Positions 2,416-63,731 of a stretch of 64,000 bases of DNA are shown here, piece by piece; within the stretch, counting starts at the first letter, position 1, and each line of letters opens with the position of its first letter. Below the pieces are notes generated by a model. The model had not been told where the DNA came from, did no database searches, and saw only the letters and a program-made list of their open reading frames with translations. Source of the stretch: a phage; NCBI GenBank assembly GCA_025823825.1, contig GCA_025823825.1_4720.1; one strand, 5' to 3'. A program made the translations under genes and the position numbers.

Positions 2416-2458
2416 CATAACCCTCCTCCAACCCATCAGGGAAGGAGGAGGGAATATG
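2416..2458. terminator. conserved palindromic hairpin element, copy 1 (between convergent genes)
   Basis: cata-aCCCTCCTCC-aaccc-atca-gggaa-GGAGGAGGG-aatatg. Confidence 0.6.
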
Positions 2459-2461
2459 CTG

Positions 2462-3367
2462 TTATGCTACATATAACGTTAGATAACCGTCGATGAGCGT
2501 ATTCATCACACTGAGTTGAAGTACGACAGCTTTACTAACATCCGTACGTACACCAAACGGGAGTGTTTTGAATTGCTCTGGATCGGCTATTACTTTCGCG
2601 TTCTGCAAGTTGAGTGGTCCAGGCATTGACGACAATACCCAGCGATCGTTGACCATAAGGCCGTCGATCTCTTCAGAGAGACCCAATTGCAGTGCGTTCA
2701 TTTCTGCGATTAGTGCCTCCGATTGCGTATCACCTGAGGTTAACGTATACCCATCGGTAAGTGACGCCAGAACACCAGCAGATACGAACCAGTTGTACGA
2801 AACAATAGCGCCTGGGAGTTTACTGCTATCTCGATCGATGATATAATTCAACCCAGCCAACATATTGTTGCGAACGAGGTTGTTGAGGTCGTTATGTCCT
2901 GAAGTTAACTCAACAAGTAATTGACCAACCCATACTTGGTTACCGGGTTTAGGTGTTATCGCAACCTGTATCGGTGACCTGGACTTATCCAGATCCGCGT
3001 CGACAATCTCGGTTTTGTTGAGAAGGATACCGTACGTCGATGCTAAGACAGGTAGGATCTCAGAGACCTTGGTTAATGCATCTAAGGTTTCGATCTCGAT
3101 GGGCCAGTGGTGCTGTCCGCCAGACCAAGTACCCAGTTTACCAAGATCGATGCGGTTATAATAGATGTCGACAGAGTTCACCAGCCCTGAACCAGGTTGG
3201 GGATGCACGGTTAACTTGCTGTTACGCTTGTACCCTGTGCTTTCAGAAGCTTCACCGATAACCAGTTTATCCAGCGTTACGCCTCGAGCATCGAAATCGC
3301 TATGCTTTCGAATCAGCCGAAAGAGGATTTCTTTCGATTCTAACCCCAGGATTTCACTGTACTCCAT
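2462..3367 (-). CDS. virion/fibre-associated protein, paralog family F member 1
   Basis: 301-aa ORF; shares YKRN..., YY(N/D)RI..., TDRWVL...NL(Q/Y)NAKV motifs with 4284-5135 and 5146-6081. Confidence 0.65.
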   Translation of the reverse strand: MEYSEILGLESKEILFRLIRKHSDFDARGVTLDKLVIGEASESTGYKRNSKLTVHPQPGSGLVNSVDIYYNRIDLGKLGTWSGGQHHWPIEIETLDALTKVSEILPVLASTYGILLNKTEIVDADLDKSRSPIQVAITPKPGNQVWVGQLLVELTSGHNDLNNLVRNNMLAGLNYIIDRDSSKLPGAIVSYNWFVSAGVLASLTDGYTLTSGDTQSEALIAEMNALQLGLSEEIDGLMVNDRWVLSSMPGPLNLQNAKVIADPEQFKTLPFGVRTDVSKAVVLQLSVMNTLIDGYLTLYVA

Positions 3368-3382
3368 TTAACACCTCTTAGG

Positions 3383-4267
3383 TTACGGTAGGATTTCTGC
3401 GCCCGTCGGGCCTGCCTTACGAGCTTCCAACGCACCAAGGTCGTATTTCAGTGTCAGCGTATCGTTGGTGGTATAAAGGTTGTGGTAAGTCGAAATCAGA
3501 TCGGTAACCTGCGCGCCGACGATTTCGTTCATGTCGAAGGTAGAACCTTGACCATCATCAGCACGAACGATTTTATCGCCAGCAGAGACCATCCCAATTT
3601 CAGAAATAACCGCGTACTCTTCACCACCTTCTGTGAGTTTAGCCACATTGAGATATTCGTTAATATCCCATGGCGTCCAAACCAAAGAGACTTTACAGCT
3701 GTAGTCGTAGTACTCCCCGGTCGCTACCAGAATTCCGGTTGTTGGAATATCCGGTCGGGCGGGGTTGAGGTTCGCGTCGGTTGGATGCCATTCGATGGTC
3801 TGAGCGACGCCGTCGACGTATTTGGTATAACGCATGGAGCGGACAACGTTATCGAAATCGATGCGACGACCGTAATAACAGATATACTTTTTACCGCTTT
3901 CCAGTGTCTCAATACGACGTAACCCAAATTTAGCGCGTTCGTCTGTGGTTAAGTCGTTACCAACCTCACGCATTACGAAAGGTTTGATTTTCCACGGTGA
4001 AAGATCGCTTGCTTCGTGAGCGATCGGCATCGAGGAAGGGATACCGTTAGCGTTGCGGATGAATTCGTGACCCTGGTTGCCGATACAGAAGTAACGTACA
4101 GCAGGATTACCCTCGGGGTAAACCTTTGATTGAATCTGAAGCTTTTCATTCAAGGTGCTGTGTTCTTCCCACGCATGAGGAAGACCGAGCGTAAGGTTAG
4201 TTTGTACTTGACCGCCGATAATCGTACGGACGATACGATCGGTAGCACGGATTTGTGTAGAAGCCAT
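3383..4267 (-). CDS. hypothetical protein (294 aa)
   Basis: Long ORF in tight tandem with neighbours. Confidence 0.65.
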   Translation of the reverse strand: MASTQIRATDRIVRTIIGGQVQTNLTLGLPHAWEEHSTLNEKLQIQSKVYPEGNPAVRYFCIGNQGHEFIRNANGIPSSMPIAHEASDLSPWKIKPFVMREVGNDLTTDERAKFGLRRIETLESGKKYICYYGRRIDFDNVVRSMRYTKYVDGVAQTIEWHPTDANLNPARPDIPTTGILVATGEYYDYSCKVSLVWTPWDINEYLNVAKLTEGGEEYAVISEIGMVSAGDKIVRADDGQGSTFDMNEIVGAQVTDLISTYHNLYTTNDTLTLKYDLGALEARKAGPTGAEILP

Positions 4268-4283
4268 GTCTTTTCCTATTTAA

Positions 4284-5135
4284 TCAGTTATATTGCATCA
4301 ACAGGATACCGCCGTAGTTCGTGCAGTAATCTTGGCTAAGCGTAACGATAACAGCGTTAGCGAACGCGGGGTTAACAGGATAACCCTGTGCGATAAGTTC
4401 TGTTGTTTTACCGGTTGCAAGCACGGTGGCTCCGTAAAGGTTGTTTTCGTCTTCACGGCCGTTATAAACCCACGGGGTTGGTGCAACGTTGTTGAATAAG
4501 CTAACCAATGCGCTTAAGTTACCACCAACTTTTAACCCAGCAAGATCGGAACGGATCGCTGTACAGTCTATAGCGTAACTGTAGACCAGTGCCTGGATAC
4601 GATTTGCGGTGTAGTACGGGAAATTGAGACCGGTCATCACCGTGGTCTTCATCATCCCCGCAATATCGTGGGCACTATCGAGAAGATAGAACGTAACGCT
4701 CCCCGTCCAAGCCAATCCGGTTGTTTTCAATTCTACGGTGTGTGGGAACGGATATTCATCGCCTCGTACAATCGGAGAATCGACGCAGCTATCCTGATCG
4801 ATAACGATACCGTACGTTGATTGAATCAGAGGGATAAGATCGTGTGTCGTTTTAACCCCGGCATCGATAGCAAGCTTCGGTTCCATCCCCAAGAAGAAGT
4901 CTTGAATAGGGATACGATCGTACCACACGTAGCTGCTTTCACGGTATTGTGCTGGTGTTACTGTTGCCGAAGGCGATACTTTCGCGCGGGTGTTCCGTTT
5001 ATACGCATGGTTTCCGTTTTCAGCAACATCCGTGATATCAAGTGCATCGAAGTTAAAGTCGAAGTCAGGATTGGCTGCCTGAATAAGTTCAGCGACCAGT
5101 ACTTTAGGACTTTTGTTTAACAATTTCTGACTCAT
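4284..5135 (-). CDS. virion/fibre-associated protein, paralog family F member 2
   Basis: 283-aa ORF; shares AYKRNT, LAWTGSV and C-terminal motifs with 2462-3367 and 5146-6081. Confidence 0.65.
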   Translation of the reverse strand: MSQKLLNKSPKVLVAELIQAANPDFDFNFDALDITDVAENGNHAYKRNTRAKVSPSATVTPAQYRESSYVWYDRIPIQDFFLGMEPKLAIDAGVKTTHDLIPLIQSTYGIVIDQDSCVDSPIVRGDEYPFPHTVELKTTGLAWTGSVTFYLLDSAHDIAGMMKTTVMTGLNFPYYTANRIQALVYSYAIDCTAIRSDLAGLKVGGNLSALVSLFNNVAPTPWVYNGREDENNLYGATVLATGKTTELIAQGYPVNPAFANAVIVTLSQDYCTNYGGILLMQYN

Positions 5136-5145
5136 TGTTTATTCC

Positions 5146-6140: not shown

Positions 6141-8621
6141 TTAAACGTCCTCGATAGGCAAAGGTTTAACAATCAAACGATTGAGCGGATTCGATAGACG
6201 CATACTGATAGGCTTATACGCAACATGATTCGTCTCACTTAGAGCCACTGATCTGAAACGACCGTTCAACCGTTTGTAAATCGGTTCTATCCAGAGACCT
6301 CGAAGATCACGTTTACGGAAACGTTGTTCGAACGGTTTGATTGGGGTTACGGTTAACCCACGCAACGACTCTGATGGCAGACGCTCACGAAGGTCGCGTG
6401 GTGCCCGACCTGGGAACGGTGCAAGCCACAAACCATCGAGCGGATTTTTACGGAAACGCAACGAGACAGGATCGCTAATGACTTGTGCCCAATATTGCGT
6501 ACTGAATCGAACGGTTTGGGTGTTCTCGTAACCACTACAATCACACCAGGTTGGTTTCGGAGGCGCTTCCAAACTTTCAACCGCCGATTCACGCCAGTTC
6601 GTCATCGGGTTGTTATCATGTACGAATTTGATAACTTCCGTAGCCTGGTTATCCGTATCATGAACGTTTGCCTGTGCCCAGTCTTCCCACAGTTCTTCAC
6701 TACCACTTACTAAACTCGAACCGAGACGAACGGCGATTTTATTTAGTGGTTTGATTGGGTCACTGTTGATTGTCTGGATAAAATGGATGGTGTAACTGCT
6801 CAATGTCTTAAGCAGCTGCAGCATTCCGTATTGAATATCCTTAAGACTGGTGACATCTTCCAAATCCTGGCCGGTGGCCTTTGTGAAGATATCGAGAGCC
6901 AGAATACCCGCCTCTTCTTGACTGATTGCGTCAAGCTCCCAATCCATCGATAAGAACCATTCCTTGTAAAGCTGTCCAATACCGAAGTCGACACCAACAT
7001 CCATGTAGAAGTTTTCAACGATTGCTTCAGCCATGCCTCGAGCTTGATAATGTTCTTGGAGCTGATACATGAACTGATGGCGACGCCAGCCCTGGTAAAT
7101 CTCGGTAACGGCGCTCAGAAACTCTTCAGTACTGACGACAGCACGCAGCGTCACTTGCTTATCCAAACACCACCAGATCAGTTTATCGGGAATGATAGCA
7201 GGATCGGTAATGCTACGGAGATGGTCGAATGTCGGTAGCGTTAACACCCTGACGTGGTTAGCATGGATCTTAGGTACTTCAATCAGCGTCATGCCCATCG
7301 AATAGTTCAGCAAATACAAGAACAGCTTGTATGCATCTTTCATCGACATCGTCATGGTATCACCCGTCACCGGGTTGGTTGTCGTTAACCGTGACTGATA
7401 CATGCCTATCGCGCTAAGATGAATCCATTCGTTCAGCAGGAAATCATACTTAGGATACAGTTCACTGTCTGTAAGGTCTTCGGCTTCACTTTCCAACACC
7501 TTGGTCGTTAAGGTATTGTTGTCATGCATCGACATCTTCTCTATCGTGCGGTTAAGCTCGGTATAATACTCCGCTTCGTTATCCCGCGCTAGAGGGAACT
7601 GTTGCTGCATCACGGTGGTGACCTTACGTCTTACCGTGCCATTACCGACGATCTCTTGAAGGTTAAGCGGTTTACGCTCCATGTAAACTGCGGGTTTTAA
7701 CGTCTGGGGTATCTCGGAAGCGTCTTGTTTGATCGAGAACGCACCGATTGGAATTCCACGATCGGTTAATACCTTTTGAATGAGCTTATCGTAGTTTTCC
7801 GTTCTGCCCATGTTTCTTTCAACGTAAGCGATGTTACGATAGAACCAGAGCATTTGGGATTCGGTCATGTATCGCTTGAATCGATCGAGACCTTGATGGC
7901 TTGCCAGATAACTCCAGATATGGAAGCTATGGGCATAATGGGTATGACAGTTTTCCCAACGAATACCTTTTATCATCTCAGGTATTTGTGTGAATAGGAT
8001 GGCGTATAGCGCAGGCCAATGAAGCATATCGACGCTCTCATATGCCGGATGTTCCCAGCGTCTGAAGTAATCGTCGATTTCTTGCTGTAAACGTGGAATA
8101 AGATTGGCCTCGCGTGACTCAACCTCTTGTGTATCGTACCAGAGAATCTCATGATTGCGTGCCGCAATTGCTTTCTCGATATCGATGGGGTTAAGGATAC
8201 CCAAGATCAACATACGTTGTTCCGGGTACCGCGCAATTAAACGATTGAAATAATCTCCACCATACGCGTATTCCCTTGCCGTCATGCGATGCCGTAACAT
8301 GTTTTCCTTGGTGAACTCGATCTCTTCGAGCGTATCCAGGGAATTTACGGTCATCATTGTCTGACAAGGATGATACTCGCCAGCGAGATTCATGTAGTAT
8401 AACCACGTGCGTGGGTCGTCCCCGACGGCCATCTGGTAGACTTCGGAAACCTTGAGGTTTAACCGTTCTGCCGTGATGTCGCTTTTAATAATCAGGGTGT
8501 CCGTTAGACGCTGCACGCTTTCCGAATAAAGCTGATAGTCAGTGTTGGACACGATCGGTCCTCCAAGGAGCCAGTGTAAATGAACGATATAAATAAAGGG
8601 CGCGTCGCCCTCGAACGTCAA
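6141..8621 (-). CDS. large hypothetical protein (~800 aa) with C-terminal triple R(F)RK-PLDGLW repeat
   Basis: Long ORF; track start overlaps the start of the divergent gene at 8580, so true start is probably GTG near 8552 (GGAGG 7 nt upstream). Confidence 0.7.
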   Translation of the reverse strand: MTFEGDAPFIYIVHLHWLLGGPIVSNTDYQLYSESVQRLTDTLIIKSDITAERLNLKVSEVYQMAVGDDPRTWLYYMNLAGEYHPCQTMMTVNSLDTLEEIEFTKENMLRHRMTAREYAYGGDYFNRLIARYPEQRMLILGILNPIDIEKAIAARNHEILWYDTQEVESREANLIPRLQQEIDDYFRRWEHPAYESVDMLHWPALYAILFTQIPEMIKGIRWENCHTHYAHSFHIWSYLASHQGLDRFKRYMTESQMLWFYRNIAYVERNMGRTENYDKLIQKVLTDRGIPIGAFSIKQDASEIPQTLKPAVYMERKPLNLQEIVGNGTVRRKVTTVMQQQFPLARDNEAEYYTELNRTIEKMSMHDNNTLTTKVLESEAEDLTDSELYPKYDFLLNEWIHLSAIGMYQSRLTTTNPVTGDTMTMSMKDAYKLFLYLLNYSMGMTLIEVPKIHANHVRVLTLPTFDHLRSITDPAIIPDKLIWWCLDKQVTLRAVVSTEEFLSAVTEIYQGWRRHQFMYQLQEHYQARGMAEAIVENFYMDVGVDFGIGQLYKEWFLSMDWELDAISQEEAGILALDIFTKATGQDLEDVTSLKDIQYGMLQLLKTLSSYTIHFIQTINSDPIKPLNKIAVRLGSSLVSGSEELWEDWAQANVHDTDNQATEVIKFVHDNNPMTNWRESAVESLEAPPKPTWCDCSGYENTQTVRFSTQYWAQVISDPVSLRFRKNPLDGLWLAPFPGRAPRDLRERLPSESLRGLTVTPIKPFEQRFRKRDLRGLWIEPIYKRLNGRFRSVALSETNHVAYKPISMRLSNPLNRLIVKPLPIEDV

Positions 8622-11489
8622 ATGAGCAATAATGACGTTGCGAAGGCACTCATGAACAAATTTGTCGCTCCTGCTCCGCAGTCACGTCTTTATAATACAC
8701 GTGATGCGGAAGGAGCGAACGGTCGTTTCGGGTTAGTTGTTCCCGACCAAATGACGATGAACACGGTTACGCGTGCGACCGCGACAAACATCGAGGATAA
8801 TAAAAACATCCTCGAGTTGTTCCCTGAACTTAAACGCGTGATGCAGATCTATGTTGCCGCGTTGACGAACCCTAACGATCTTAAGACGGTCGAGATGTTT
8901 ATCGACAGCGAAGATTTCCCCGGCAGAGTCGCAGAAATCGTTCAGCCGATGATCGATACCATCGACACGCATTTTAAGAATATCTATAAAATAAAGACGC
9001 TTATCCCTCGTATCATCGAAGACGTCTTCTTTATCAAGGGCAGTTATAACTTCGTTGTTCTGCCGGAAAGCACGCTCGACCGCGCCATTAATGGTAACGG
9101 TCAACTGAAACTTGAAGAATACGGATTTAAAGACAACCATTTTGCAAGTTGGGGGCTTCTAGGTAACGACAGTCGCAAACGCCACGAAAATCAATTACCT
9201 GCGACGGTTTCGATGGAAGATTATTTCTCGGGTGTTAATGAAACCATACCGTACGATCCTGTTGTTCGCATAGACAGCATCAAGTTTACCAATACCCTGC
9301 TTCGCGATAAGGACGGTAAATTCATTGAAGCGAAGATCGATATTCCGGATATGGTTACGGTTGTCGATAACCCAGACATCCTCCGCATGCCTATTCTGCA
9401 TCAACGTCGAGCAGCGACAGCAGTGCAGCGTGCGTTACGCGCAAACACGTTAGGAGGTAGTGGTTTGGTAACGCTGTCAGGCGATCCGACCCTAACCGCT
9501 AACCGACGTGAGCTGTCGCAAGAACAGGTTAACGAGATCTGGAATAAGCTCAACATCCAGCGCCACACCAAGGTATCGCCCGTTTACGCGCTGGCAACCC
9601 CAGATACGCTTGATCGTCAAAGCGTTGGCCATCCTGGCGTGATGCATGTACCACCTGAGGCATTAGAACCCGTACATGCGCCCGGTGATCCTGAGAACCA
9701 TATCGGGTATTTGGTTCAGTTGGATGAGTTTGGTTATCCAGTACGTTTGGTTGAAGATGCGGCGTATTACAAGCAGTTGGAAGGTCGGTTGTCGAAGATC
9801 ACCGCAGATATCGCAGGTACGTCAAGCAACGGCATGGCGAGCGAGATGATTGGTGCAGCCAAGAACATGATCCAAGGTACGTCATGTAATCAGGTAGACA
9901 TGTCGGCCTTCGTATCATCGTACGAATCGCTGATGCAACGTTACATTGTCGAACGTATCGTTAACGGTTATCTTGGCAGTGCGGTGGAGATCGGTGCGAC
10001 ATCGTCGTTTTATCTGTCGATGCTTGCTCGTAGCCTCGCTCACAAGCAGACCCGTGTTTTGTTTATTCCTCGAGAGATGGTGACTTACATCGCCTATGAA
10101 TACAACAAATACGGTATCGGTCGTTCGCTGCTTGAAAGTACGAAGATGATCTCATCGCAACGAGCCATGCTCATGGTTCAAGAACTGATGGCAAAAATCA
10201 AAAGTTCGTTGAACTATACGACGCTAAGCGTAATGCTTGAAGACACCGACAGAAACCCGGTCGATACCGTCGAACAAGCGCTGCATAGTTTCGCTCGTGT
10301 CTACCAGTCTGGTTTCCCGTTGGGTGAAACTAACCCGATGGATATCATCAACGCGTACGAACGAAGCTCGATTCGATTGAAGGTTGAGGGGAATAACCCA
10401 CGCTTCCCGAAATTGAATACAGACGTCAGTGTTGAGCAGCGTAACTATCAGTCTCCTGATAATGAGCTGATGGATCGTTACCGTCGTGACCATTTCATGG
10501 GCTTGGGTGTGTCTCCGGAGATTATCGATACTTCCTACCAATCTGAATTCGCAGCTTCTGTGATTACAGCTAACGCGATGCAAGAGAAACAGTTCACGGT
10601 TTGTCGTGAGGTGATCACGAATGGGTTATCGGACCACATCAAGAAATATACGGCATACAGTCCCGTGTTGTTGACGTCGTTACGAAACACGGTTCGTGCG
10701 AACATGTCTAAGCTTTCCCAGGCACAATTGAAGCAGCTTTTTGGTAGCGATTTCGAAAACGGTGTTATCCGTAACGTTAACGCCTATCAGGAGATTGACG
10801 ACCAATCAGCAACAATGGATCTGGATTACACTAAACCAGAAGTCCAGGAAGTTATTGCCGATGCTTATGTGTCCATGTTCTTAAACAGCCTGCGTGTGCG
10901 TTTACCGGATAGCAATGCTCGTCGCCTTGAAGATCAGGTACGTGAATATAATCAGTACAAGGAAGCGATTACTGCGCAACTTGATGATTATTTAACGCCC
11001 GATTACGTCATGGGTCTGGGTGGGGTTGATGAAACAACGCTGCAGATGATCCGCGCATGCATTATTGGTACCGCGATGCGTACGTGGGCAAAAGAGAACA
11101 ACTTCAATCAGGAGCTGGCTGATCTCTTCAGTCTTGACGATAAGAAGAATGCCGTGCAAGATTGGAAACGTATGTCCATGGAACATATTGAAGTCATGGG
11201 TAAATGCATGGGTGATTTTGCATTGTATATTCAGAATCTGACGAAGAAGATTGAAGAGAAGATGGGAGCTCAAGCACAGGACGGTAGCGTTTCATCTGAT
11301 GGTTCGTGGTCATCCGATTCAAGTAGCGATACCGGTTCTTCTGATGACTTCGGTGGCGGTGACGATTTCGGAGATACCGATTTCGATACCGAAACGATGG
11401 AGGAAACCTCAACAGAAGAAACAACCACATCTGAGGATACGACGACCGACACAACGTCAGAAGACGATACTTCAGGTGACATTGTCTAA
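8580..11489 (+). CDS. large hypothetical virion-type protein (969 aa) with acidic Ser/Thr/Asp-rich C-terminal tail
   Basis: Long ORF, AAGGAG 9 nt upstream of ATG; C-terminus SSDGSWSSDSSSDTGSSDDFGGGDDFGDTDFDTE... Confidence 0.75.
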   Translation: MNDINKGRVALERQMSNNDVAKALMNKFVAPAPQSRLYNTRDAEGANGRFGLVVPDQMTMNTVTRATATNIEDNKNILELFPELKRVMQIYVAALTNPNDLKTVEMFIDSEDFPGRVAEIVQPMIDTIDTHFKNIYKIKTLIPRIIEDVFFIKGSYNFVVLPESTLDRAINGNGQLKLEEYGFKDNHFASWGLLGNDSRKRHENQLPATVSMEDYFSGVNETIPYDPVVRIDSIKFTNTLLRDKDGKFIEAKIDIPDMVTVVDNPDILRMPILHQRRAATAVQRALRANTLGGSGLVTLSGDPTLTANRRELSQEQVNEIWNKLNIQRHTKVSPVYALATPDTLDRQSVGHPGVMHVPPEALEPVHAPGDPENHIGYLVQLDEFGYPVRLVEDAAYYKQLEGRLSKITADIAGTSSNGMASEMIGAAKNMIQGTSCNQVDMSAFVSSYESLMQRYIVERIVNGYLGSAVEIGATSSFYLSMLARSLAHKQTRVLFIPREMVTYIAYEYNKYGIGRSLLESTKMISSQRAMLMVQELMAKIKSSLNYTTLSVMLEDTDRNPVDTVEQALHSFARVYQSGFPLGETNPMDIINAYERSSIRLKVEGNNPRFPKLNTDVSVEQRNYQSPDNELMDRYRRDHFMGLGVSPEIIDTSYQSEFAASVITANAMQEKQFTVCREVITNGLSDHIKKYTAYSPVLLTSLRNTVRANMSKLSQAQLKQLFGSDFENGVIRNVNAYQEIDDQSATMDLDYTKPEVQEVIADAYVSMFLNSLRVRLPDSNARRLEDQVREYNQYKEAITAQLDDYLTPDYVMGLGGVDETTLQMIRACIIGTAMRTWAKENNFNQELADLFSLDDKKNAVQDWKRMSMEHIEVMGKCMGDFALYIQNLTKKIEEKMGAQAQDGSVSSDGSWSSDSSSDTGSSDDFGGGDDFGDTDFDTETMEETSTEETTTSEDTTTDTTSEDDTSGDIV

Positions 11490-11513: not shown

Positions 11514-11563
11514 CATAGTTAACCTTCTCCCCAACCCGATGAGGGAAGGGGAGAAGGGCTATG
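11514..11563. terminator. conserved palindromic hairpin element, copy 2 (convergent); A10/T10 run adjacent
   Basis: cata-gttaaCCTTCTCCCC-aaccc-gatga-gggaa-GGGGAGAAGG-gctatg. Confidence 0.6.
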
Positions 11564-11574: not shown

Positions 11575-11850
11575 TTATTTCGAGGTTAACCACGATTCAA
11601 TTATGGTGAGTTTGCTTCTCAGTACGCGCCAACTAGGGTGTGGTGGGATCACAGCGCCATTGTCGATTACGGTTAGCTGAACCTGGTACTTCTGTTGCAT
11701 ACGCGCTACCGTGTCGCTTATCGAGAGGAAAAGCTGGTAACGTTCATATGCCGTCAGTTCACTGTCCTGTTGAACTGCGTTGGCTGCTAACGTAATTTCG
11801 CGTAAGTCCTTTGCATCCACAGAGACGGTAATGAGTTTATATTGACTCAT
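11575..11850 (-). CDS. small hypothetical protein (91 aa)
   Basis: ORF between hairpin element and the next gene; no recognisable motifs. Confidence 0.5.
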   Translation of the reverse strand: MSQYKLITVSVDAKDLREITLAANAVQQDSELTAYERYQLFLSISDTVARMQQKYQVQLTVIDNGAVIPPHPSWRVLRSKLTIIESWLTSK

Positions 11851-17783: not shown

Positions 17784-17978
17784 CCTCCATCAGATTGAAA
17801 ACTATCACGCATAATACATTTCCCTTTTTCTTGTTCTTATCAAGCCGACAGCCGACGGTTTCAGCATCGTTCCTAGCGCGAGAACGACCTTACGTGTTGT
17901 CTATGCCTTATTCATCGCAGGCGTCTGTCACCTAGGTAATGTAAGCGTCAAATTTTTTCTATTCGCAACGATAAACGG

Positions 17979-18026
17979 CATAGAAACCTCCCCCAACCCT
18001 TACGGGCTGAGGGAGGCTGACTTATG
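17979..18026. terminator. hairpin element, copy 3 (3' of the capsid-candidate gene)
   Basis: cata-gaaaCCTCCCcc-aaccc-ttac-ggg-ctga-GGGAGG-ctgacttatg; irregular inner loop. Confidence 0.5.
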
Positions 18027-22758: not shown

Positions 22759-22781
22759 ACACAAAAAAAGATTGTACGGTT

Positions 22782-22819
22782 CCCTCCTCCAACCCGTAAG
22801 GGAAGGAGGAGGGGTTATG
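22782..22819. terminator. hairpin element, copy 4 (convergent)
   Basis: CCCTCCTCC-aaccc-gtaa-gggaa-GGAGGAGGGG-ttatg; A7/T7 run on left flank. Confidence 0.6.
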
Positions 22820-26652: not shown

Positions 26653-26697
26653 CATAGAACCCTCTCCCAACCCATAAGGGAAGGGAGAGGGAATATT
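26653..26697. terminator. hairpin element, copy 5 (tandem minus-strand genes)
   Basis: cata-gaaCCCTCTCCC-aaccc-ataa-gggaa-GGGAGAGGG-aatatt; stop codon of 26696 gene in right flank. Confidence 0.6.
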
Positions 26698-31958: not shown

Positions 31959-31992
31959 CATAAAGCCCACCCCGAAGGGCGGGCTGTTTATG
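31959..31992. terminator. hairpin element, copy 6 (shorter variant)
   Basis: cata-aAGCCCaCCCC-gaag-GGGCGGGCT-gtttatg. Confidence 0.5.
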
Positions 31993-37885: not shown

Positions 37886-37939
37886 CATAAAACCTTCCTC
37901 CAACCCAACAGGGAAGGAGGAAGGGATATAGTGGTTATG
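37886..37939. terminator. hairpin element, copy 7 (tandem minus-strand genes)
   Basis: cata-aaaCCTTCCTCC-aaccc-aaca-gggaa-GGAGGAAGG-gatatagtggttatg. Confidence 0.6.
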
Positions 37940-40591: not shown

Positions 40592-40636
40592 CATAGAACC
40601 CTCTCCCAACCCGTGAGGGAAGGGAGAGGGAATATG
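40592..40636. terminator. hairpin element, copy 8 (tandem minus-strand genes)
   Basis: cata-gaaCCCTCTCCC-aaccc-gtga-gggaa-GGGAGAGGG-aatatg. Confidence 0.6.
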
Positions 40637-40652
40637 TCAGTTTATTAACTGA

Positions 40653-41984: not shown

Positions 41985-42049
41985 AATTTTGTTTCCTTTA
42001 CAATAAATTGCACATTAGCTAATGCGGCTTAAGTGAACCGTCAGTTCAC

Positions 42050-42712: not shown

Positions 42713-43479
42713 TACTCCAGCGCTTGGGCTTCTTCTTTGGCTGCTTGTAATGATGCTTCTTCACGTTCGCTGCGCCAGATACGGAAACGGTAAACAAGCG
42801 TGTCGGTTACATCGCCGTTAGCCCACGAACCCATACGCATCGGGTCAGTATTACCCGCATTGTACAATCCGTTACCAACACCGTCTTCATCAGAAACCAC
42901 GACATCCGGGATTTTATCCAATCCAGCAAGGATCTGTTGTTTCTGTCCACATAGCACCTCGGTGGCAACGGCGAAACCGTACATATTGGCGGTCAGGTAA
43001 GCAATCTCGTTTTTGGTGAAGAACTCACCAAGTGCTTTATCACCACCCGGCATGCTTTCGCAGATGACCGTCGCACGAAGCAGCGTACGAGCGTAGCTAA
43101 CGTAGAAGCCCAGAGACTCAACAAGACGTACCAGAGCGGCTTCTTTGAAACTCAGACCGTCAGCAGCAACATCGATTTCCAGGTTTTTGTTAACGCGTTT
43201 AACAATTTCTGGAATCAGATCAACAGCATTACGTAGCGCTAAGTGAACGTTTTCTACCCAGCTTCCAGAGCGAACGCGGGTTAAACGCTGGTGCAGATCC
43301 TTATCAGCAAGTTTCCATAGGGCGCTTTCACCCTTTTGGAGAAGCGAAGCGGATGTCTCGTAGTAAGGAATCGCGGTGTTGTTGATTTCGTCACGGATTG
43401 ATTCGAGTGCGTCAGCAACACCTGTGCGTTTAAAAAGCGGCTTCAAACCGCGAATGAATTCTTTAAAATCAATTGCCAT
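42577..43479 (-). CDS. hypothetical protein (300 aa)
   Basis: ORF, ATG start. Confidence 0.7.
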   Translation of the reverse strand: MAIDFKEFIRGLKPLFKRTGVADALESIRDEINNTAIPYYETSASLLQKGESALWKLADKDLHQRLTRVRSGSWVENVHLALRNAVDLIPEIVKRVNKNLEIDVAADGLSFKEAALVRLVESLGFYVSYARTLLRATVICESMPGGDKALGEFFTKNEIAYLTANMYGFAVATEVLCGQKQQILAGLDKIPDVVVSDEDGVGNGLYNAGNTDPMRMGSWANGDVTDTLVYRFRIWRSEREEASLQAAKEEAQALEYWILSLKQKQQNAGNDPKIQQQIEYHEDRLKKLRYDIKRKEEAAV

Positions 43480-43518
43480 GAGTGAGCACCTATGCTATTT
43501 CGAAACAGGTTGCGAGTG

Positions 43519-44625: not shown

Positions 44626-44626
44626 A

Positions 44627-45865: not shown

Positions 45866-45868
45866 TAA

Positions 45869-48862: not shown

Positions 48863-48878
48863 AACAAAATAGCGTGAG

Positions 48879-48921
48879 CATAACCCTCCTCCAACCCGTA
48901 AGGGAAGGAGGAGGGAATATG
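48879..48921. terminator. hairpin element, copy 9 (convergent)
   Basis: cata-aCCCTCCTCC-aaccc-gtaa-gggaa-GGAGGAGGG-aatatg; right flank aatatgctgttat identical to copy 1. Confidence 0.6.
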
Positions 48922-48924
48922 CTG

Positions 48925-51732: not shown

Positions 51733-51764
51733 CCCAGGGGAAGGTTTTCAGCCTTCCCCTAGGG
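51733..51764. terminator. hairpin element, copy 10 (variant, directly upstream of RBS of 48925-51717)
   Basis: cccAGGGGAAGG-ttttcag-CCTTCCCCTaggg; about 13 nt from the ggag RBS of the next gene. Confidence 0.45.
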
Positions 51765-51776
51765 TTATAAACACAA

Positions 51777-54581
51777 TTAAGCTAATTTACCGAAACCGGC
51801 TTTCTGCAGTTTCTCGTTGATCAGTTTTGCTTCCGCGAAAACATAATCACGATACGCAGTCACTAACGCATCCACACGTGAACGCAAGGCTTCTTCGAAG
51901 CTATACCACGCAGCGATTTCACGAATCTGTGCGTTGATATAATCAACGGTTGAGCGAAGCTCGGTTGCGTTTTCTTGCGGGATGGCTTTCACCTGGCGAG
52001 CAACGTCATTTAAACGACGGAACTGCGTTTCGATTTCTTTAAACTTACTGTCGGCAAGTTTGCTGAATTCGTCACCGGAACGTGTAAATAACAGATAGCT
52101 GTTGCCGTCAAGTGCGGTCGCTAACTGCTGAAGTACGTTGGTGTCCGGATACACAGGAGTACCGCTTTGCAATACTTTCTCACCGAATTCCGCGAAGTCC
52201 TTCGGCGGTAAGTGCGCAGACGTTGTCAACTCGTTGAAACGGAAAGTCAGCGAATTGTCATACAGCATCCGGTACGCTTCCATGCCCTGTTTCATGGTAC
52301 CAGCCAGGTTGGCCAGACGCGGAGCAATCTCACCCTCTTTAGCGCGTTTCTGGTCTTCTAACGCCCCTTCCAGTTCTTTACACTGGTCATTCAGATACAC
52401 GATACGATCGGGACGCAGACGACGCATCTCACGAAGAATAGTATCCAGCTTACCTTCCTGGAAATAACCCAACGTTAAAGACGTACACGCTTGCTGAAGA
52501 CGATCGAAGACCGGTAAGGTCACCATCTCCTTACGGATACCATCAACAATCGCAGAAACAGCCGAAAGTTTCTGTTCTGTCGTTAATGGAACATCAGAGA
52601 CCGACTTGCTGGGCGCACCAACAACGTTACGCATTGCGTCGGTATCCTCGGTTTTATCAACCTCTTTACGAACATGCTCATCAGGAACATAAACGTTCGC
52701 ATTACGTTTCGCCTGCTTGATGGCATCGTTGGCCGCTTTTTCGGTGGCTGCTACGCTATCGGCACGTTTCTTCAAGAGTTCAATAATCCAGAGCACCAGA
52801 CGACGAATCGCAGTGTAGGCTGTCGTGATGATGACACCGATAACCGCCATCTTCATGATACCGAACGATTCCATGGTCGGCTCTAACGCCTGGTCGGGCA
52901 TATACCGTTCACGCAGCTCCAGATAGATCTGCTCATCCGGTTTGCTGATCTCGCCACGATGCGAAGTCCGATAGATGGCTTCGTCAATCTCAACAAGATC
53001 TTTGCGTGCCTGACGGTCTGTTTCGGTCAAATAAGCGCAGCCGGATACGTCGTCTTCAAAACTTTCGAACTTAAAGAAATCGACAACCATCTTGGCAAGC
53101 GCCTCTTTCTTAGCAGGATCGAGTGTCTTCGCATCTTCTTTTTGCTTATCCATTTTTTCCTTGAATTTCTCTTTGTAGTCATTCAAGGGTTTTACCGCTC
53201 TTGCTTTCAACGCGTTATAGATAGCTTTCCACTCATCGTTACGTTCGAGGACAATGAAATGGTTTTTGAGTTCGAAAGCGCGATAGCGTGCAACGAGCTG
53301 TTCTACCTGAATATGAGCGAGTTGGATATCCATTAACCAACGCGACATCGCCGAGATCAAACGGCTATAAGCGAACAACGTTTGGTAGGTTAACTTCATG
53401 TATGTTTCATACAGCTCAATATCGCCGCTCTGAATATTGGCTGTTGGATTCATTTCCTTTGTTGCCTTGAAGACCTGTTCTGCTTCTCTCAGCGTCTTTT
53501 CGAACTTAACGTCATTAAACGCAGTGAATGGTTCAGCCAACTCATGCATTTTATCGTGGAGTTCGCGGATCCAAGCTTCCTTGCTGTCGCGGATGGTGTT
53601 TTCATCATGGAGCACGGTTTGATGTTTTCGTACCCATTCTTCCACGATATCAGCAGCGGAAACAATCGGAACGCGATCTGAAATGAGCGGGACGATCGTG
53701 TGAAGCGCCCCGACACATTCTGGCGTGTCCCAGTGTTTCTGGAGTTCATCACGGAAACGGTTAATGTTTTCTAAGGTGGTACCTAAATCAAGGAAAGTGC
53801 CGCCATTATGACTCATCTGTGCAACCAGATCGGCAAATACCTTTTGTTTTTCGATGACAAAAGGAACCATCCGCATAAGCCATTCAGCAGTTGCTTTAGC
53901 CTTTTCTTTCAGGTTCTTATCAGCGATTTCCTTAAGGTTAATCGCGCTACCGTATCCAGCAAGTTCGTTGTAGACGTCGTTAAGCGTCATTTGTTTATCC
54001 AACATTTCTTTGAAACGTGGATAATCTGCACCTAACGCGTCGATGACTTCTTGGATGATGTCGTCTGTGGTAGCGATAAATTTATTTGTGCCGCCGTAAT
54101 GCTTCCAGATTTTCTGCAGCGTCTTCTTAAAGAATTCGAAGACGAATGTCCAGATACGTTTGATGAGTTCCCAGACTTTCTTCGCACCATCGACAAACAG
54201 TTTAGAGACCTTGGCAACGAATCCTTCCTGCACTAACTCAACGCCGTTACGTGATGGGATTTCCGTGAAGAAAGCATCTGGCAGTTGTTTCGGGAACGCA
54301 TCACCAAGACGCATACGCAATTCGGGTACATCGGCACGAGAAATACCACGCGTCGTTAGCTGCTCGTGAAGACGAACGTTTTCTTCACCAGAGGCTACGA
54401 ATTCGTTAACGTCAAATGAAACCAGTTCTTGATCTTCGGTGGTAACGACGCTTGAACCATCGCTGGTTTGGATGTCTTCGTCAGGGAACGCCATGAGCAT
54501 ACCGTGACGCATTTCAACCACTCCGTAATCGGTTGCTAAACCGAATTCGTTGTGATCGGGGGTAATAACTGGGATACTCAT
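51777..54581 (-). CDS. large virion/head-type protein (934 aa), paralog family D
   Basis: Long ORF; ...VELVQEGFVAKVSKLFVDGAKKVWELIKRIWTFVFEFF... aligns with the family D core. Confidence 0.8.
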   Translation of the reverse strand: MSIPVITPDHNEFGLATDYGVVEMRHGMLMAFPDEDIQTSDGSSVVTTEDQELVSFDVNEFVASGEENVRLHEQLTTRGISRADVPELRMRLGDAFPKQLPDAFFTEIPSRNGVELVQEGFVAKVSKLFVDGAKKVWELIKRIWTFVFEFFKKTLQKIWKHYGGTNKFIATTDDIIQEVIDALGADYPRFKEMLDKQMTLNDVYNELAGYGSAINLKEIADKNLKEKAKATAEWLMRMVPFVIEKQKVFADLVAQMSHNGGTFLDLGTTLENINRFRDELQKHWDTPECVGALHTIVPLISDRVPIVSAADIVEEWVRKHQTVLHDENTIRDSKEAWIRELHDKMHELAEPFTAFNDVKFEKTLREAEQVFKATKEMNPTANIQSGDIELYETYMKLTYQTLFAYSRLISAMSRWLMDIQLAHIQVEQLVARYRAFELKNHFIVLERNDEWKAIYNALKARAVKPLNDYKEKFKEKMDKQKEDAKTLDPAKKEALAKMVVDFFKFESFEDDVSGCAYLTETDRQARKDLVEIDEAIYRTSHRGEISKPDEQIYLELRERYMPDQALEPTMESFGIMKMAVIGVIITTAYTAIRRLVLWIIELLKKRADSVAATEKAANDAIKQAKRNANVYVPDEHVRKEVDKTEDTDAMRNVVGAPSKSVSDVPLTTEQKLSAVSAIVDGIRKEMVTLPVFDRLQQACTSLTLGYFQEGKLDTILREMRRLRPDRIVYLNDQCKELEGALEDQKRAKEGEIAPRLANLAGTMKQGMEAYRMLYDNSLTFRFNELTTSAHLPPKDFAEFGEKVLQSGTPVYPDTNVLQQLATALDGNSYLLFTRSGDEFSKLADSKFKEIETQFRRLNDVARQVKAIPQENATELRSTVDYINAQIREIAAWYSFEEALRSRVDALVTAYRDYVFAEAKLINEKLQKAGFGKLA

Positions 54582-56581: not shown

Positions 56582-58333
56582 ATGAGCGAACAAGAACGAA
56601 AACCTAAGAAGAAACTGCTCGGTATTCAATGTCGACACATCAGTTATAACGAAGCGAACGATGGCAGCAAGAACGACCTCATGATCGCAAAAGAGATCAT
56701 GTTCTTTGATGACAATACGCAAGCGACGAACCTTCGCTTCTTTGAGAATTACAAACGTCCGTTTTGGGTGACGGTAGAGAGTAAACGTAAGAACAAATAT
56801 AAAAAGGAAAGCGAGAAGCTCTCGCATGTGCGTCGCTACGATGTCCGCCAAAGCGAACTGGTTGAAAAGATCAGCTCGGTACTTTATAAAAGACGTGCTG
56901 ACGATAACACCCGTTTACAGCAGCTTGCACGGAGTCCATACCTCTATGGAACGGACGTTAGCGCCAGCTGTTATTTAAAAACCCAGTACAACACAAAATG
57001 GCCGGAATACGTCGATAAATTACCCGCTTCCATTGCCTGTTTCGATATCGAAACCGACGTTGTCCACGGACACGGTAAGATCGTTTGTATGTCTATTACA
57101 ATGGGATACAATGCGATACTTTGCTATACCAAGGACTTCGTTGGTCATATTCCGAATGCCATTGAGAAAACCCATGAGAAGATTCGATATTACCTGGCCG
57201 AACGTCTGAATACCAAAGAAGATCCCCACGCATTCGAAAAATATCAGTACGATGTTCGAATCGTAGAAAGCCCGGCACAAGCGGTCATCCAATGCATGCA
57301 GAAGGTTCACGAATGGCAGCCGGATTATCTCCTTGGCTGGAATATCGCGTTCGATATTCCGCGTATGCTCCAGGCACTGAACGAGGAAGGGTATCGTCCC
57401 GAGGATGTTTTCTCCGATCCTCGCGTACCACCTAAGTATCGTATTGCTCGCTGGGTGCCACCGAAGACCGACAAGGTATCTGCTTCAGGTCGTAAAACCA
57501 ACCTTACCCTCGAGCAAACCTGGCCGATGTTTTATACGATGGCTACGTATCAGGTTATGGATGCGATGTGTGGTTATAAGTTCGTTCGTTTAGGAAGACC
57601 GGATGAAGGACGCTATTCACTCGATGCGGTATTAGAGCGAAATAAATGCCATACGAAATTAAAAGCAATTCCTGGTACAGAAGGGTTCACGGAGCTCGCC
57701 TGGCACGAAGAGATGCAAACGAACCATCAAATCGACTACGGCGTATATAACCTTTGGGATAACCAGGGTATTGAGGCGTTGGACCAGAAAACAAAAGACT
57801 ATTCGATGACCATCCCTATCCGTTTAGCGGCGTCGGATTTGAAAGATTTCAGTTCTAACCCTAAACGTATCTGCGATAAACTTTTCTTCGTTTATCTTAA
57901 CCGTGGGGAAGTCATGGGATGTACCGCTGACGACATGACCCAGGAAGAAGATAAGTGGGTTATCTCACGAGCTGGACATATCGTCACATTACCATGCGAT
58001 CTCATGGCTGACAACGGCATTCATCTCTTCTGGGATATGCCGAACCTGAGAAGTTATATCCGTCTATTCGTTGCAGACCTTGACATTAGCAGTTCATACC
58101 CAAATGGGCAGATCCTGTTGAATCTATCCAGAGCATGTGTTTTTCGTGAGCTCTCGCGCATTGAGGGCGTCTCTGACTATCAATTCAGGAAGTTAGGTAT
58201 CAACTTTATTACCGGAGGTAAAACGAACGCTGTAGACTTCTGTAGAATCGTTTATAAAGCACCGTCGATGTTTGAACTTTTAGAACATTTCGATGCGACG
58301 CGTCCAAAAGAGGAAGCGCGGACCATCGAATGA
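56582..58333 (+). CDS. family B DNA polymerase, N-terminal part (3'-5' exonuclease domain plus polymerase motif A)
   Basis: 583-aa ORF; Exo I CFDIETD, Exo II GWNIAFDIP, Exo III YNLWD, motif A-like DISSSYPNG; no motif B/C before stop. Confidence 0.7.
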   Translation: MSEQERKPKKKLLGIQCRHISYNEANDGSKNDLMIAKEIMFFDDNTQATNLRFFENYKRPFWVTVESKRKNKYKKESEKLSHVRRYDVRQSELVEKISSVLYKRRADDNTRLQQLARSPYLYGTDVSASCYLKTQYNTKWPEYVDKLPASIACFDIETDVVHGHGKIVCMSITMGYNAILCYTKDFVGHIPNAIEKTHEKIRYYLAERLNTKEDPHAFEKYQYDVRIVESPAQAVIQCMQKVHEWQPDYLLGWNIAFDIPRMLQALNEEGYRPEDVFSDPRVPPKYRIARWVPPKTDKVSASGRKTNLTLEQTWPMFYTMATYQVMDAMCGYKFVRLGRPDEGRYSLDAVLERNKCHTKLKAIPGTEGFTELAWHEEMQTNHQIDYGVYNLWDNQGIEALDQKTKDYSMTIPIRLAASDLKDFSSNPKRICDKLFFVYLNRGEVMGCTADDMTQEEDKWVISRAGHIVTLPCDLMADNGIHLFWDMPNLRSYIRLFVADLDISSSYPNGQILLNLSRACVFRELSRIEGVSDYQFRKLGINFITGGKTNAVDFCRIVYKAPSMFELLEHFDATRPKEEARTIE

Positions 58334-58382: not shown

Positions 58383-58435
58383 CCCCTCCCCCTGGCGGAA
58401 GCCGGAGGGAGGGGTGGAGGTTTTATGCGTTTTTA
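58383..58435. terminator. hairpin element, copy 11, with T-run on plus strand (terminator of DNA polymerase fragment gene)
   Basis: CCCCTCCCCC-tggcggaagccgg-AGGGAGGGG-tggaggttttatgcgttttt. Confidence 0.6.
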
Positions 58436-58892: not shown

Positions 58893-59186
58893 TTAAAAGA
58901 TATCAAGCCATGAGGATGGAGGAACCAGTTCGCTGGTAAAGTAATCGCCACTGATACCACTATCATCAAAGTGACGTTCGTTGTAACACTGGACGAGCTT
59001 ACCTCCACGTTCTTTCTGATACCATCCAAGGATACTATTAAGACCTCTGTCCACGCATTCGAATGCTTGAGTAATAACATCCTCAACGACGGAGGCTGCC
59101 GTGGGACCATTGAATAGACGATCTAAGCGCTTTTTCATCGATTTGGTTTTCTCGTTCATGATTTCTTTTCCTGTTATAATCGGCAT
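58893..59186 (-). CDS. small hypothetical protein (88-97 aa)
   Basis: ORF; first ATG coincides with hairpin-flank TATG; an alternative start 27 nt in has agga upstream. Confidence 0.45.
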   Translation of the reverse strand: MPIITGKEIMNEKTKSMKKRLDRLFNGPTAASVVEDVITQAFECVDRGLNSILGWYQKERGGKLVQCYNERHFDDSGISGDYFTSELVPPSSWLDIF

Positions 59187-59227
59187 ACAACCCTTCCCCG
59201 GCCTTGACGGCTAGGGAAGGGGCTATG
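59184..59227. terminator. hairpin element, copy 12
   Basis: cata-caaCCCTTCCCC-ggccttgacggcta-GGGAAGGGG-ctatg. Confidence 0.5.
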
Positions 59228-59235: not shown

Positions 59236-59664
59236 TTATGCTTCGCAATCAGCTGAAGGCGTCGCGCCTTTCTTACCAGCGATACGCCAAATCCGACACG
59301 CTGGGTAATGGTTAACCTCTAGAGAGCAAGGAATGTTATATTTCTCTTCCAGCGCATAAAGACATTTCGTTAGCTGCTCCAGCGCGTTCTCGTCGTGTCG
59401 TAACGCGTGGTGACCTAATCGATGTTGGTCGTTCTTTATATACGCCTCGAAGAGAACATGTTGGCGATGTACGCTGACGTTTACAGCCTCGAGTATAGCT
59501 TGGTCGAGCATACGACTAAAGCACATCAACGAGTCAGATACGTTTTCTCGCTTAACCAGATCGATCATGGCGGGAATATACGAATGGTCGATGTTATCGA
59601 TGACCGCTTTAGCGACGGAATCAGCAACGTTCATCTTTTTAATCCCTAGTTTGTTATTGATCAC
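59236..59664 (-). CDS. small protein, paralog family B member 1 (142 aa)
   Basis: Shares V(A/V)KAV(I/N)DNIDH...MIDL(V/I)K...EEKYNIP(C/F)SLEVN with 59671-60066. Confidence 0.6.
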   Translation of the reverse strand: MINNKLGIKKMNVADSVAKAVIDNIDHSYIPAMIDLVKRENVSDSLMCFSRMLDQAILEAVNVSVHRQHVLFEAYIKNDQHRLGHHALRHDENALEQLTKCLYALEEKYNIPCSLEVNHYPACRIWRIAGKKGATPSADCEA

Positions 59665-62564: not shown

Positions 62565-62582
62565 TTAATGATGAAAAGCTGT

Positions 62583-62612
62583 AAAAAAAAAAAAGGTGGG
62601 GCGAACCCCACC
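62583..62612 (-). terminator. canonical intrinsic terminator for the minus-strand gene 62638-63063
   Basis: ggtgggg-cgaa-ccccacc hairpin preceded on plus strand by A12, so the minus-strand RNA ends hairpin + U12. Confidence 0.75.
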
Positions 62613-62637: not shown

Positions 62638-63063
62638 TTAATTCAGTGATGCATATAAGGCATAACGACTGTAGATCTCAACCGCCGGTCCGTTATGCGT
62701 TAACAGACCGTCTCGGCTGTAATACTGGAAAAATGAATAACGTTTGTCGAAGTGATAAACAAAAGCAATGTCTTTGCCGTCAAAACCTGTGATGCGTGGT
62801 CTGTTTTTATCTAGCAATGCTTTGACTTTTAACAGTGTTGCCGCACGTGCTTTAACGTTAGGGATCAAGCCATCACAATCGATATAAACAGTGTAACCTG
62901 TTTCAGATGTTGCGACGGTCGTATTGCGATTGACGCGGAAGATTTTTGTTTCGTATGTACTATCTTCAAGAATTGGGTTTTGTTTTTCGTATTTTCGTTT
63001 ACGCAGAAATTCTACAACGGTGATATAGTTAGCGGTAATATGCCCGGTTATAGCTTGTATCAT
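62638..63063 (-). CDS. small hypothetical protein (141 aa)
   Basis: ORF followed on its 3' side by a canonical hairpin plus T-run terminator; conserved upstream element shared with 25745-26545. Confidence 0.6.
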   Translation of the reverse strand: MIQAITGHITANYITVVEFLRKRKYEKQNPILEDSTYETKIFRVNRNTTVATSETGYTVYIDCDGLIPNVKARAATLLKVKALLDKNRPRITGFDGKDIAFVYHFDKRYSFFQYYSRDGLLTHNGPAVEIYSRYALYASLN

Positions 63064-63138
63064 CTTGACATCCTCTTATATCGGATTGGTTGCAATTGTC
63101 TTAAATAGATGATAAGATATTTTGCTCTTATCACTAAG

Positions 63139-63162
63139 GTAATGTAGTCGTGAAATAAACTG
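63139..63162 (-). promoter_or_regulatory. second copy of conserved upstream element (CATTAC variant) for 62638-63063
   Basis: Plus strand gtaatgtagtcgtgaaataaactg versus gtaatatagccatgaaataaactg at 26609-26632. Confidence 0.45.
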
Positions 63163-63184
63163 CGTTAACAAGAAATAAAAAACA

Positions 63185-63240
63185 GCATAGAAACCTCCTC
63201 CCCCATCCTTCAAGAGGACGGTGGGAAGAGGGAGAGATTA
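63185..63240. terminator. hairpin element, copy 13 (degenerate)
   Basis: cata-gaaaCCTCCTCCCCC-atccttcaagaggacggt-GGGAAGAGGGAGAG-attaaatg; imperfect stem. Confidence 0.4.
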
Positions 63241-63639
63241 AATGTCGTGGACGGCAATGCCGTTTAACCAGCAATACAGCTTAACGCGACACGGATACCG
63301 CTTCGTTGCAGCAACCATTTCATCACGTAAACGCTGGTAGATTTCATCCTGGTGTTCACGTTCAATGGGGTAATCAGCCCAACATTCGATCATGACGTCA
63401 CCATTCGTCAGAATCGTCGTACGCATCCTGTCCTGGATACGGCGGTCTTTCCCGGCGTTAGGGAAATACATTCCTTCAGTACGAATAAGGTCGCCGCAGG
63501 GCATGACTAACCATTCGTTCGTTTTGCCGGTATTCTTATAATCCATTACAGCTTGCATTGCGGTGTCAACGCTAAAAGAAACATAATTCCAAACGGATGT
63601 CCAACGATAGATTGCGGGTTGTTCGAGTGTTTCGTTCAT
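63238..63639 (-). CDS. small hypothetical protein (133 aa)
   Basis: ORF flanked by hairpin elements on both sides. Confidence 0.6.
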   Translation of the reverse strand: MNETLEQPAIYRWTSVWNYVSFSVDTAMQAVMDYKNTGKTNEWLVMPCGDLIRTEGMYFPNAGKDRRIQDRMRTTILTNGDVMIECWADYPIEREHQDEIYQRLRDEMVAATKRYPCRVKLYCWLNGIAVHDI

Positions 63640-63686
63640 GGAGTGCTTTTCCTATTTTTATTTTCTGCACAGGATAAATTCAACGG

Positions 63687-63731
63687 CATAAAGCCCTTCC
63701 CTGCCCTTATATGGGGCGGGAAGAGTTTATG
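63687..63731. terminator. hairpin element, copy 14
   Basis: cata-aaGCCCTTCCCtGCCC-ttatat-GGGGCGGGAAGAG-tttatg. Confidence 0.5.

Follow-up and report, generated by a model that had tools for sequence, protein, structure and literature searches.

Terminators of phages with their own RNA polymerases have been mapped in phiKZ and 201phi2-1. In phiKZ, 61 terminators that were detected with ONT-cappable-seq share the motif BCCYCCCCHWWDGGGRRGGBYTTATKYYGT, and six of them are bidirectional (Putzeys et al. 2024, PMC10914365). In 201phi2-1, 132 terminators were mapped, with a main motif that resembles that of phiKZ and a second motif that elongates the hairpin; eight copies were validated in vivo by reporter assay, and those with elongated stems were stronger (PMC11512511). 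Elements of this design coincide with mapped RNA 3′ ends in both phages, and the 201phi2-1 copies terminate in the reporter assay (PMC10914365, PMC11512511). The DNA analyzed here is a 64,000-nt stretch of the phage contig GCA_025823825.1_4720.1, referred to as the window. It carries a family of conserved hairpins at gene 3′ ends, each with a pyrimidine arm, a purine arm, and, on at least one side, a tail that typically contains TATG. The phage's own system of transcription very probably uses these elements as terminators, which would act in the nascent RNA.

An 8-kb test piece of the window was 97.9% identical to Escherichia phage vB_EcoM_Goslar, and the whole window was aligned with positions 25.3-87.6 kb of Goslar at 92-98% identity with few insertions or deletions. 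Two other Goslar-like contigs from IMG/VR were also 92-98% identical to the window. Because of these identities, the window can be classified by its sequence as the fourth member of the Goslar-like lineage of E. coli jumbo phages (phiKZ-like, nucleus-forming, Chimalliviridae). The complete annotated genome of Goslar (237 kb) was used as the context for genome-wide counts, and its annotation includes RNA polymerase subunit genes. Together with a homologue of phiKZ GP123 encoded in the window, this annotation indicates both the virion and the non-virion multisubunit RNA polymerase that characterize a phiKZ-type phage.

The hairpin family and its conservation

The original prediction, made from the nucleotide sequence, listed about 14 hairpins as one family, and hairpins were found at the positions that it gave. 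The core string AACCCNNNNGGGAA occurs 7 times in the window, compared with 0.09 expected. Six of these occurrences belong to family copies, on the + strand; the other one (982-995, minus strand) is within a coding region, has no arms, and was rejected as a chance match. In a 50-nt fold scan, every hairpin of the window at or below -24 kcal/mol belonged to the 14 predicted copies, and the fold z-scores of representative copies ranged from -4.8 to -7.0. A covariance model was then built from 10 copies and used with a threshold of E<0.05. The model recovered 12 of the 14 (2416, 11514, 17979, 22782, 26653, 31959, 37886, 40592, 48879, 59184, 63185, and 63687), and a scan of the window with it gave no copies beyond the 14. 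Membership of a single family holds for these 12 copies, while the copy at 58383 is marginal and the one at 51733 was removed from the family (reversed arm polarity, no TATG tail, and no covariance-model match). With the purine arm leading, 51733 counts as a different hairpin and is probably an unrelated terminator. No matches to Rfam 15 were found in the window at the gathering score. Several copies are already tagged as putative terminators in the GenBank annotation of Goslar.

The sense-strand consensus reads CAUA, UU, CCCUCYYCC, UU, CCC, a 4-nt loop, GGG, UU, GGRRGAGGG, and then UU(Y)UAUGCYGUUU. The usual stem in the Goslar lineage has two tiers, in which 9-10 bp are followed by a UU/UU internal loop, 3 bp, and the 4-nt loop. 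The shared architecture that had been proposed was confirmed overall but not in every detail, since the copy at 22782 is without CATA on the + strand, 26653 ends in TATT, and 37886 ends in TATAG. Coordinated changes of the two arms, also proposed, were borne out in an alignment of 51 distinct sequences from four genomes, in which 98.5% of the stem cells are paired, 6 of the 12 pairs have changed on both sides, and none of 500 shuffles reached the observed score. The stem changes are almost exclusively exchanges between CG and UA, and the 5′ arm therefore stays pyrimidine and the 3′ arm purine. This fixed arm polarity is a constraint beyond pairing.

Across the four related genomes, the substitutions per site are 1.2% in the stems, 4.6% in the flanks, and 20% in the apical loops. 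Genome-wide, the tail is the most conserved part, and in Goslar TATGCYG(T) also follows hairpins that are shorter or of different sequence. TATGCYG occurs in Goslar about 27 times above the approximately 58 occurrences expected (an estimate from uniform composition), an excess close to the number of hairpin-preceded copies. In 31 of 38 cases, the distance from the final stem pair to the G of TATG is 5-7 nt.

Conservation of this kind could also reflect a post-transcriptional role, either as a 3′-end stability or processing element or as the site of a phage RNA-binding protein (e.g., for mRNA handling or export from the phage nucleus), with the 3′ ends produced by trimming. Such a role is improbable, a little more so than the promoter function considered below. 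The strict arm polarity, which is sequence conservation beyond the needs of pairing, would suit it, as would the retention of the tail from Pseudomonas to E. coli phages and in jumbo contigs whose host is unknown; the two-tier stems with internal loops resemble RNase III-type substrates, and chimalliviruses need to get their mRNA out of the phage nucleus, with ChmC among the RNA-binding proteins that they encode (PMC11077065). However, the apical loops, which are the usual site of protein contact, are the most variable part, and the spacing of 5-7 nt between stem and tail G fits the geometry of termination. The 201phi2-1 elements lowered the expression of a downstream reporter in uninfected cells and therefore need no phage protein (PMC11512511), and the eCLIP peaks of ChmC are near start codons with no binding motif found (PMC11077065).

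A reading of the purine arm and the ATG as a ribosome-binding site and a start codon was rejected. The reading frames that follow these ATGs are of only 3-17 codons and share no peptide; and YYG as a codon would be invariant at its third position and variable at the other two, contrary to the pattern expected of conserved coding sequence. In small contigs of non-jumbo size, however, this string does mostly represent a Shine-Dalgarno sequence with an ATG start.

Placement, tail direction, and proposed mode of action

All 14 hairpins of the window are intergenic, in a stretch of which 5.0% is intergenic DNA, and their predicted location at gene 3′ ends, between convergent or tandem minus-strand genes, was confirmed. 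The distance from the stop codon of a minus-strand gene is 0-16 nt (once 89 nt), and five of the hairpins also follow a plus-strand gene. The approximately 37 covariance-model matches in the whole Goslar genome are all at gene 3′ ends as well. The motif is present outside the window, with about 37-45 copies at gene 3′ ends of Goslar and the tail-plus-hairpin combination in about 24 other jumbo-phage contigs. Its absence from other sequence, named in the original prediction as a refuting outcome, was thus not observed.

This placement bears on a DNA-level function, whether as a palindromic site or cruciform for a dimeric phage protein (in replication, packaging, or recombination) or as a selfish repeat like REP/MITE or the promoter-early stem-loops (PeSLs) of T4. 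Every copy is found directly after a stop codon and none in a coding region, the tail orientation follows the direction of transcription, and the G-U wobbles favor the sense RNA, all of which make a function in the DNA itself highly unlikely. For each of the 12 window family copies, Goslar has an orthologue in the corresponding place, as do the two further contigs wherever they cover it, and no presence/absence polymorphism of the 12 was found against these three. What speaks for action at the DNA level are the extended perfect palindromes (CATA...TATG), the distant copies 2416 and 48879, which are near-identical including their flanks, the gene-content differences from Goslar near hairpins, and a centre that flips between orthologues, as recombination between the arms would give. 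In two orthologues, those of 22776-22819 (in contig L022/L023) and 40592-40636 (in contig L026-L037), the centre is exactly inverted from TT-CCC-TTAC-GGG-TT to AA-CCC-GTAA-GGG-AA with arms and flanks unchanged. The inversion is a small flip-flop between inverted arms, and the UU/AA orientation itself is therefore not under strong selection. The use of UU versus AA internal loops as a strand marker was weakened by the two flipped orthologues, and the tail was used instead.

Tail direction was scored in Goslar at 20 tandem minus-strand sites and 16 convergent sites, with a background rate of 5% for TATG. At the tandem sites, the sense tail contains TATG in 19/20 and TATGYYG in 15/20 cases, compared with 7/20 and 0/20 for the antisense tail. 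At the convergent sites, TATG is present on both tails in 9/16 cases. The CATA upstream corresponds, as reverse complement, to the tail that serves the opposite direction, and convergent sites carry the complete mirror ACAGCATA...TATGCTGT. Owing to G-U wobbles on the sense strand, the sense RNA is more stable than the antisense RNA at 16 of the 20 tandem sites. TATG follows the side on which the polymerase arrives, even where no gene lies downstream, and therefore fits the tail of a terminator and not a promoter that serves the gene after it.

The tail sequence is nevertheless that of a promoter core. The late promoters of the phiKZ non-virion polymerase need TATG, with the G at +1, and show no conservation beyond TATG (PMC4666361), and the beta-like subunit GP123 of phiKZ holds the four non-template TATG bases in a pocket (PMC12809450). 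The GP123 homologue of the window (14505-16304, minus strand) was found with an E value of 2e-57 and an overall identity to phiKZ of 24%. In its pocket, 7 of 14 residues are identical (S144, F151, K158, K190, H331, S334, and Q466 in phiKZ numbering) and 2 are aromatic swaps, and the residues around T-1 (N398, Y399, and S402) differ from phiKZ.

The hairpin could accordingly be one half of a stop-start module, in which it ends the upstream transcript and the adjoining TATG, as a late promoter read by the non-virion polymerase (G = +1), restarts transcription for the gene that follows. The necessity of this core on the non-template strand and its reading by GP123 (PMC4666361, PMC12809450), the homologue encoded in the window, and the position of the sense TATG 16-200 nt upstream of the next start codon at tandem sites are all in its favor, as is the C that comes next also in hairpin-less intergenic TATGs (e.g., upstream of the major head gene). 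A late promoter should have its TATG upstream of and in sense to a gene, but where convergent sites have TATG on both tails, it would drive antisense RNA only. Only hairpin-linked TATGs carry the CYG(T) extension, which agrees with the terminator consensus of phiKZ and not with its promoter. No hairpin precedes the model late promoter p119L, and three window copies have a separate early-type promoter downstream. A stop-start module is thus unlikely, and the coupling to TATG late promoters that had been suggested was not upheld as the main role of TATG, given the double tails at convergent sites and the arrival-side tail at tandem sites.

The overlap between terminator tail and promoter core is real. 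One recognition element might serve both, in that the GP123-type pocket, which binds TATG to set the start site, would re-engage TATG once an elongating polymerase reaches it with a newly formed hairpin in its wake; the resulting sequence-specific pause would commit the enzyme to releasing the RNA and possibly let it restart at once. This remains speculative and is rather doubtful. If true, a shared pocket would account for a tail that is a fixed word and no run of U, for its conservation between the Pseudomonas and the E. coli phages and in jumbo contigs of unknown host, and for TATG alone being "necessary but not sufficient" as a promoter.

At an intrinsic terminator, RNA release by a multisubunit polymerase takes place 5-7 nt past the stem. 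In the favored explanation, that of a terminator, the unit would be a GC-rich hairpin (pyrimidine 5′ arm and purine 3′ arm) followed by the tail UU(Y)UAUGCYGU, with the A/U-rich stretch UUYUAU in place of the usual U-tract and the G of UAUG presumably at the release distance. For convergent genes or the blocking of antisense transcription, the mirror tail CATA would be added, giving an extended palindrome that works both ways, and the 5′ CAUA would pair with UAUG as an A-tract does with a U-tract in canonical bidirectional terminators. This explanation builds on the observed anatomy, covariation, placement, and tail orientation and on the identity of design with the phiKZ motif. The leading reading of the original prediction, phage-specific and often bidirectional terminators in a phiKZ-like phage, is supported by the identity to Goslar and by the match to the phiKZ motif.

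Several points weigh against a role in termination. The tails are not canonical U-tracts, having typically 4-5 T of 8, broken by A and G, and a generic scan of window positions 30-50 kb (uninterrupted stem and a U-tract of at least 5 T in 8) called none of the 4 family copies there. Three two-tier copies were probably missed due to their interrupted stems, and the single-stem copy 31959 was also missed; the misses as such were not counted against termination. The same scan gave 20 canonical terminator sites, compared with 21.3 by chance. Part of the strand asymmetry of the covariance model is not under selection, given the flipped centres. In phiKZ, the 3′ ends from ONT-cappable-seq are not fully separable from 3′ trimming back to a stable hairpin, and two phiKZ consensus terminators are antisense to neighboring genes (15947 on the + strand and 42943 on the - strand of L007, the 100-150 kb part of phiKZ), in agreement with the approximately 9% of antisense terminators reported for these phages. 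Finally, we infer termination in the Goslar lineage from homology of design, and likewise which of the two phage polymerases responds.

As terminators, the elements give a map of transcription-unit ends for Goslar, the main E. coli model of nucleus-forming phages, with 12-13 in the window and about 40 genome-wide, and a covariance model is available for finding these hairpins. The hairpin-plus-TTATGYYGT signal is conserved across distant jumbo phages and therefore points to a conserved phage polymerase, not the host enzyme. The analysis sharpens a testable question, namely by what mechanism these unusual polymerases end transcription and for what reason their promoter core is part of the terminator tail.

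Individual copies and neighboring sequences

The hairpins are listed in Table 1. Among the window copies, the one at 26653 has the highest covariance-model score. For the copy at 17979, G-U wobbles are confined to the minus-strand RNA, an early-type promoter is found 36 nt further on, and the Goslar orthologue has an E- of -32.2 compared with an E+ of -21.4.

Table 1. Hairpins of the window, with genomic context, tails, and covariance-model scores
Feature	Position	Strand	Genomic context	Tail and flanks	Score (bits)
Two-tier hairpin, putative terminator	2416..2458	.	Convergent genes 1130-2410 (+) and 2462-3367 (-)	TATG tails on both sides; + tail TATGCTGT	62.9 on -, 32.6 on +
Two-tier hairpin	11514..11563	.	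Convergent genes 8580-11489 (+) and 11575-11850 (-)	Minus tail TATG, then T-run	37.5 / 19.3
Hairpin	17979..18026	-	89 nt past major head protein gene (18116-20338, -)	UUUCUAUGCCGU	56 on -, 22.8 on +
Two-tier hairpin; centre flipped in one related contig	22776..22819	.	Between DnaB-like helicase gene (+) and 22830-23156 (-)	TTATG on + side only; T-run on minus side	
Two-tier hairpin	26653..26697	-	Overlaps stop codon of 26696-28063 (-); early-type promoter next	UUCUAUGCUGU	67.2
Short single-stem copy, GCCCGCCC-UUCG-GGGUGGGC-UUUAUGCUGU; z -4.8; phiKZ consensus with 3 substitutions	31959..31992	-			17.5
Two-tier hairpin	37886..37931	-	3 nt past 37935-39224 (-)	UUUUAUGG	60.3
Two-tier hairpin; centre flipped in one related contig	40592..40636	-	16 nt past 40653-41975 (-)	UUCUAUGCCG	64.1
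Two-tier hairpin	48879..48921	.	Convergent genes 45869-48862 (+) and 48925-51717 (-)	Tails on both sides	60.3 / 34
Variant hairpin, inner stem GCC/GGC	59184..59227	-	8 nt past 59236-59664 (-)	UUGUAUGCCG	50.8
Longer variant hairpin	63186..63236	-	1 nt past 63238-63639 (-); early-type promoter next	UUUCUAUGCUGU	23.4
Variant hairpin, sense-strand U-G wobble	63687..63731	-		CUUUAUGCCGU	51.9
Marginal relative, pyrimidine-then-purine hairpin	58383..58430	+	After DNA polymerase gene (+)	TTTTATGCG about 10 nt beyond stem	14.1 (E 0.46)
Strong hairpin outside the family, purine arm first	51733..51768	-	After 51777-54581 (-)	Without TATG tail	No match

The early-type motif TTTCAYGRCTAYATTACYTWNGTGA occurs on the minus strand at 17928-17943, 26601-26616, and 63131-63146, each 35-60 nt downstream of a family hairpin. 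About 14 copies of the motif are spread across Goslar, one of them upstream of the nuclear shell gene. The motif agrees with the published early-promoter consensus (virion-polymerase type) of phiKZ (TATATTAC), 201phi2-1, OBP, and N1M2 (PMC7058600). At approximately 62575-62610 in minus sense, GGTGGGGTTCGCCCCACC and the 12 T after it form a canonical poly-T intrinsic terminator, which ends the short gene under the early-type promoter at 63131. It is an anecdotal hint that early units may use poly-T terminators and late units TATG tails.

Sigma-70-type promoter-like sites number 13 at window positions 30001-50000, compared with 25.4 ± 5.1 in shuffled sequence, or about half, a scarcity that would fit a phage independent of the host polymerase. 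Two differences in gene content from Goslar were also seen. At 24305-26541, a 2.2-kb segment with three minus-strand open reading frames stands in place of about 40 bp of Goslar (49616-49657), directly downstream of the module of hairpin and early promoter at 26600-26697. At 56582-58333, the DNA polymerase reading frame is unbroken (583 aa), and in Goslar (79690-83295) a 1.78-kb insertion with a NUMOD1/HNH homing-endonuclease gene truncates the annotated polymerase gene.

Comparison with known terminators and promoters

A search with the phiKZ consensus gave 9 sites in 50 kb of phiKZ (up to 5 substitutions) and the window copy 31959 (3 substitutions), and some of the phiKZ sites are CATA...TATG palindromes that follow the major head gene or separate convergent genes. 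The likeness extends to the pyrimidine arm, the 4-nt loop, the purine arm, and the tail YTTATKYYGT directly after the stem, and to the setting, with copies placed where genes end and bidirectional ones where they converge, a chimallivirus that has polymerases of its own, and the CATA...TATG symmetry. The two motifs differ in the stem, which in most window copies has two tiers (9-10 bp + UU/UU + 3 bp) compared with the single 7-bp stem of phiKZ, and two-tier copies align to the single-stem consensus only with an insertion. They differ also in the tail, where the K of phiKZ is almost always G in the window and the next base is C (TATGCYG), and in that the phiKZ 3′ ends have been mapped whereas the window copies are known from sequence alone. 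The motifs A and A+B of 201phi2-1, compared by description only, likewise have a phiKZ-like core lengthened into a longer stem (PMC11512511).

In IMG/VR, the two-tier form is limited to Goslar and the two Goslar-like contigs, and the purine arm followed by TTTATGYYGT is found in about 24 different contigs of 226-325 kb. The complementary arm precedes every one of the 34 matches to GGAGGGNTTTATGYYGT in contigs of 170 kb or more, and CATA precedes about 24 of them as well.

The phiKZ late promoter core has the same four non-template bases, with the G where an RNA end (5′ or 3′) would fall. It needs no hairpin, whereas the hairpin-linked TATG carries CYGT and occurs where no gene follows. Canonical bidirectional intrinsic terminators, such as T50 of LUZ7 (PMC10204088), share with the window copies a GC-rich hairpin, mirror flanks that can pair with each other, a location between convergent genes, and a release point expected 5-9 nt past the stem. 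The flanks of the window copies, however, are the words CATA and TATGCYGT and not runs of A or U, and their arms are strictly pyrimidine and then purine.

In the T4-type PeSL, a stem-loop terminator is followed shortly by an early promoter. The window copies 17979, 26653, and 63185 have the same arrangement of a hairpin and then an early promoter, and both types are found at the borders of variable gene cassettes. T4 belongs to another phage family and uses another polymerase, and the window family is genome-wide and mostly without an adjacent early promoter. The elements do not reveal a new kind of terminator; the class has already been described and mapped in phiKZ and 201phi2-1, and the elongated two-tier stem is the feature of the Goslar lineage.

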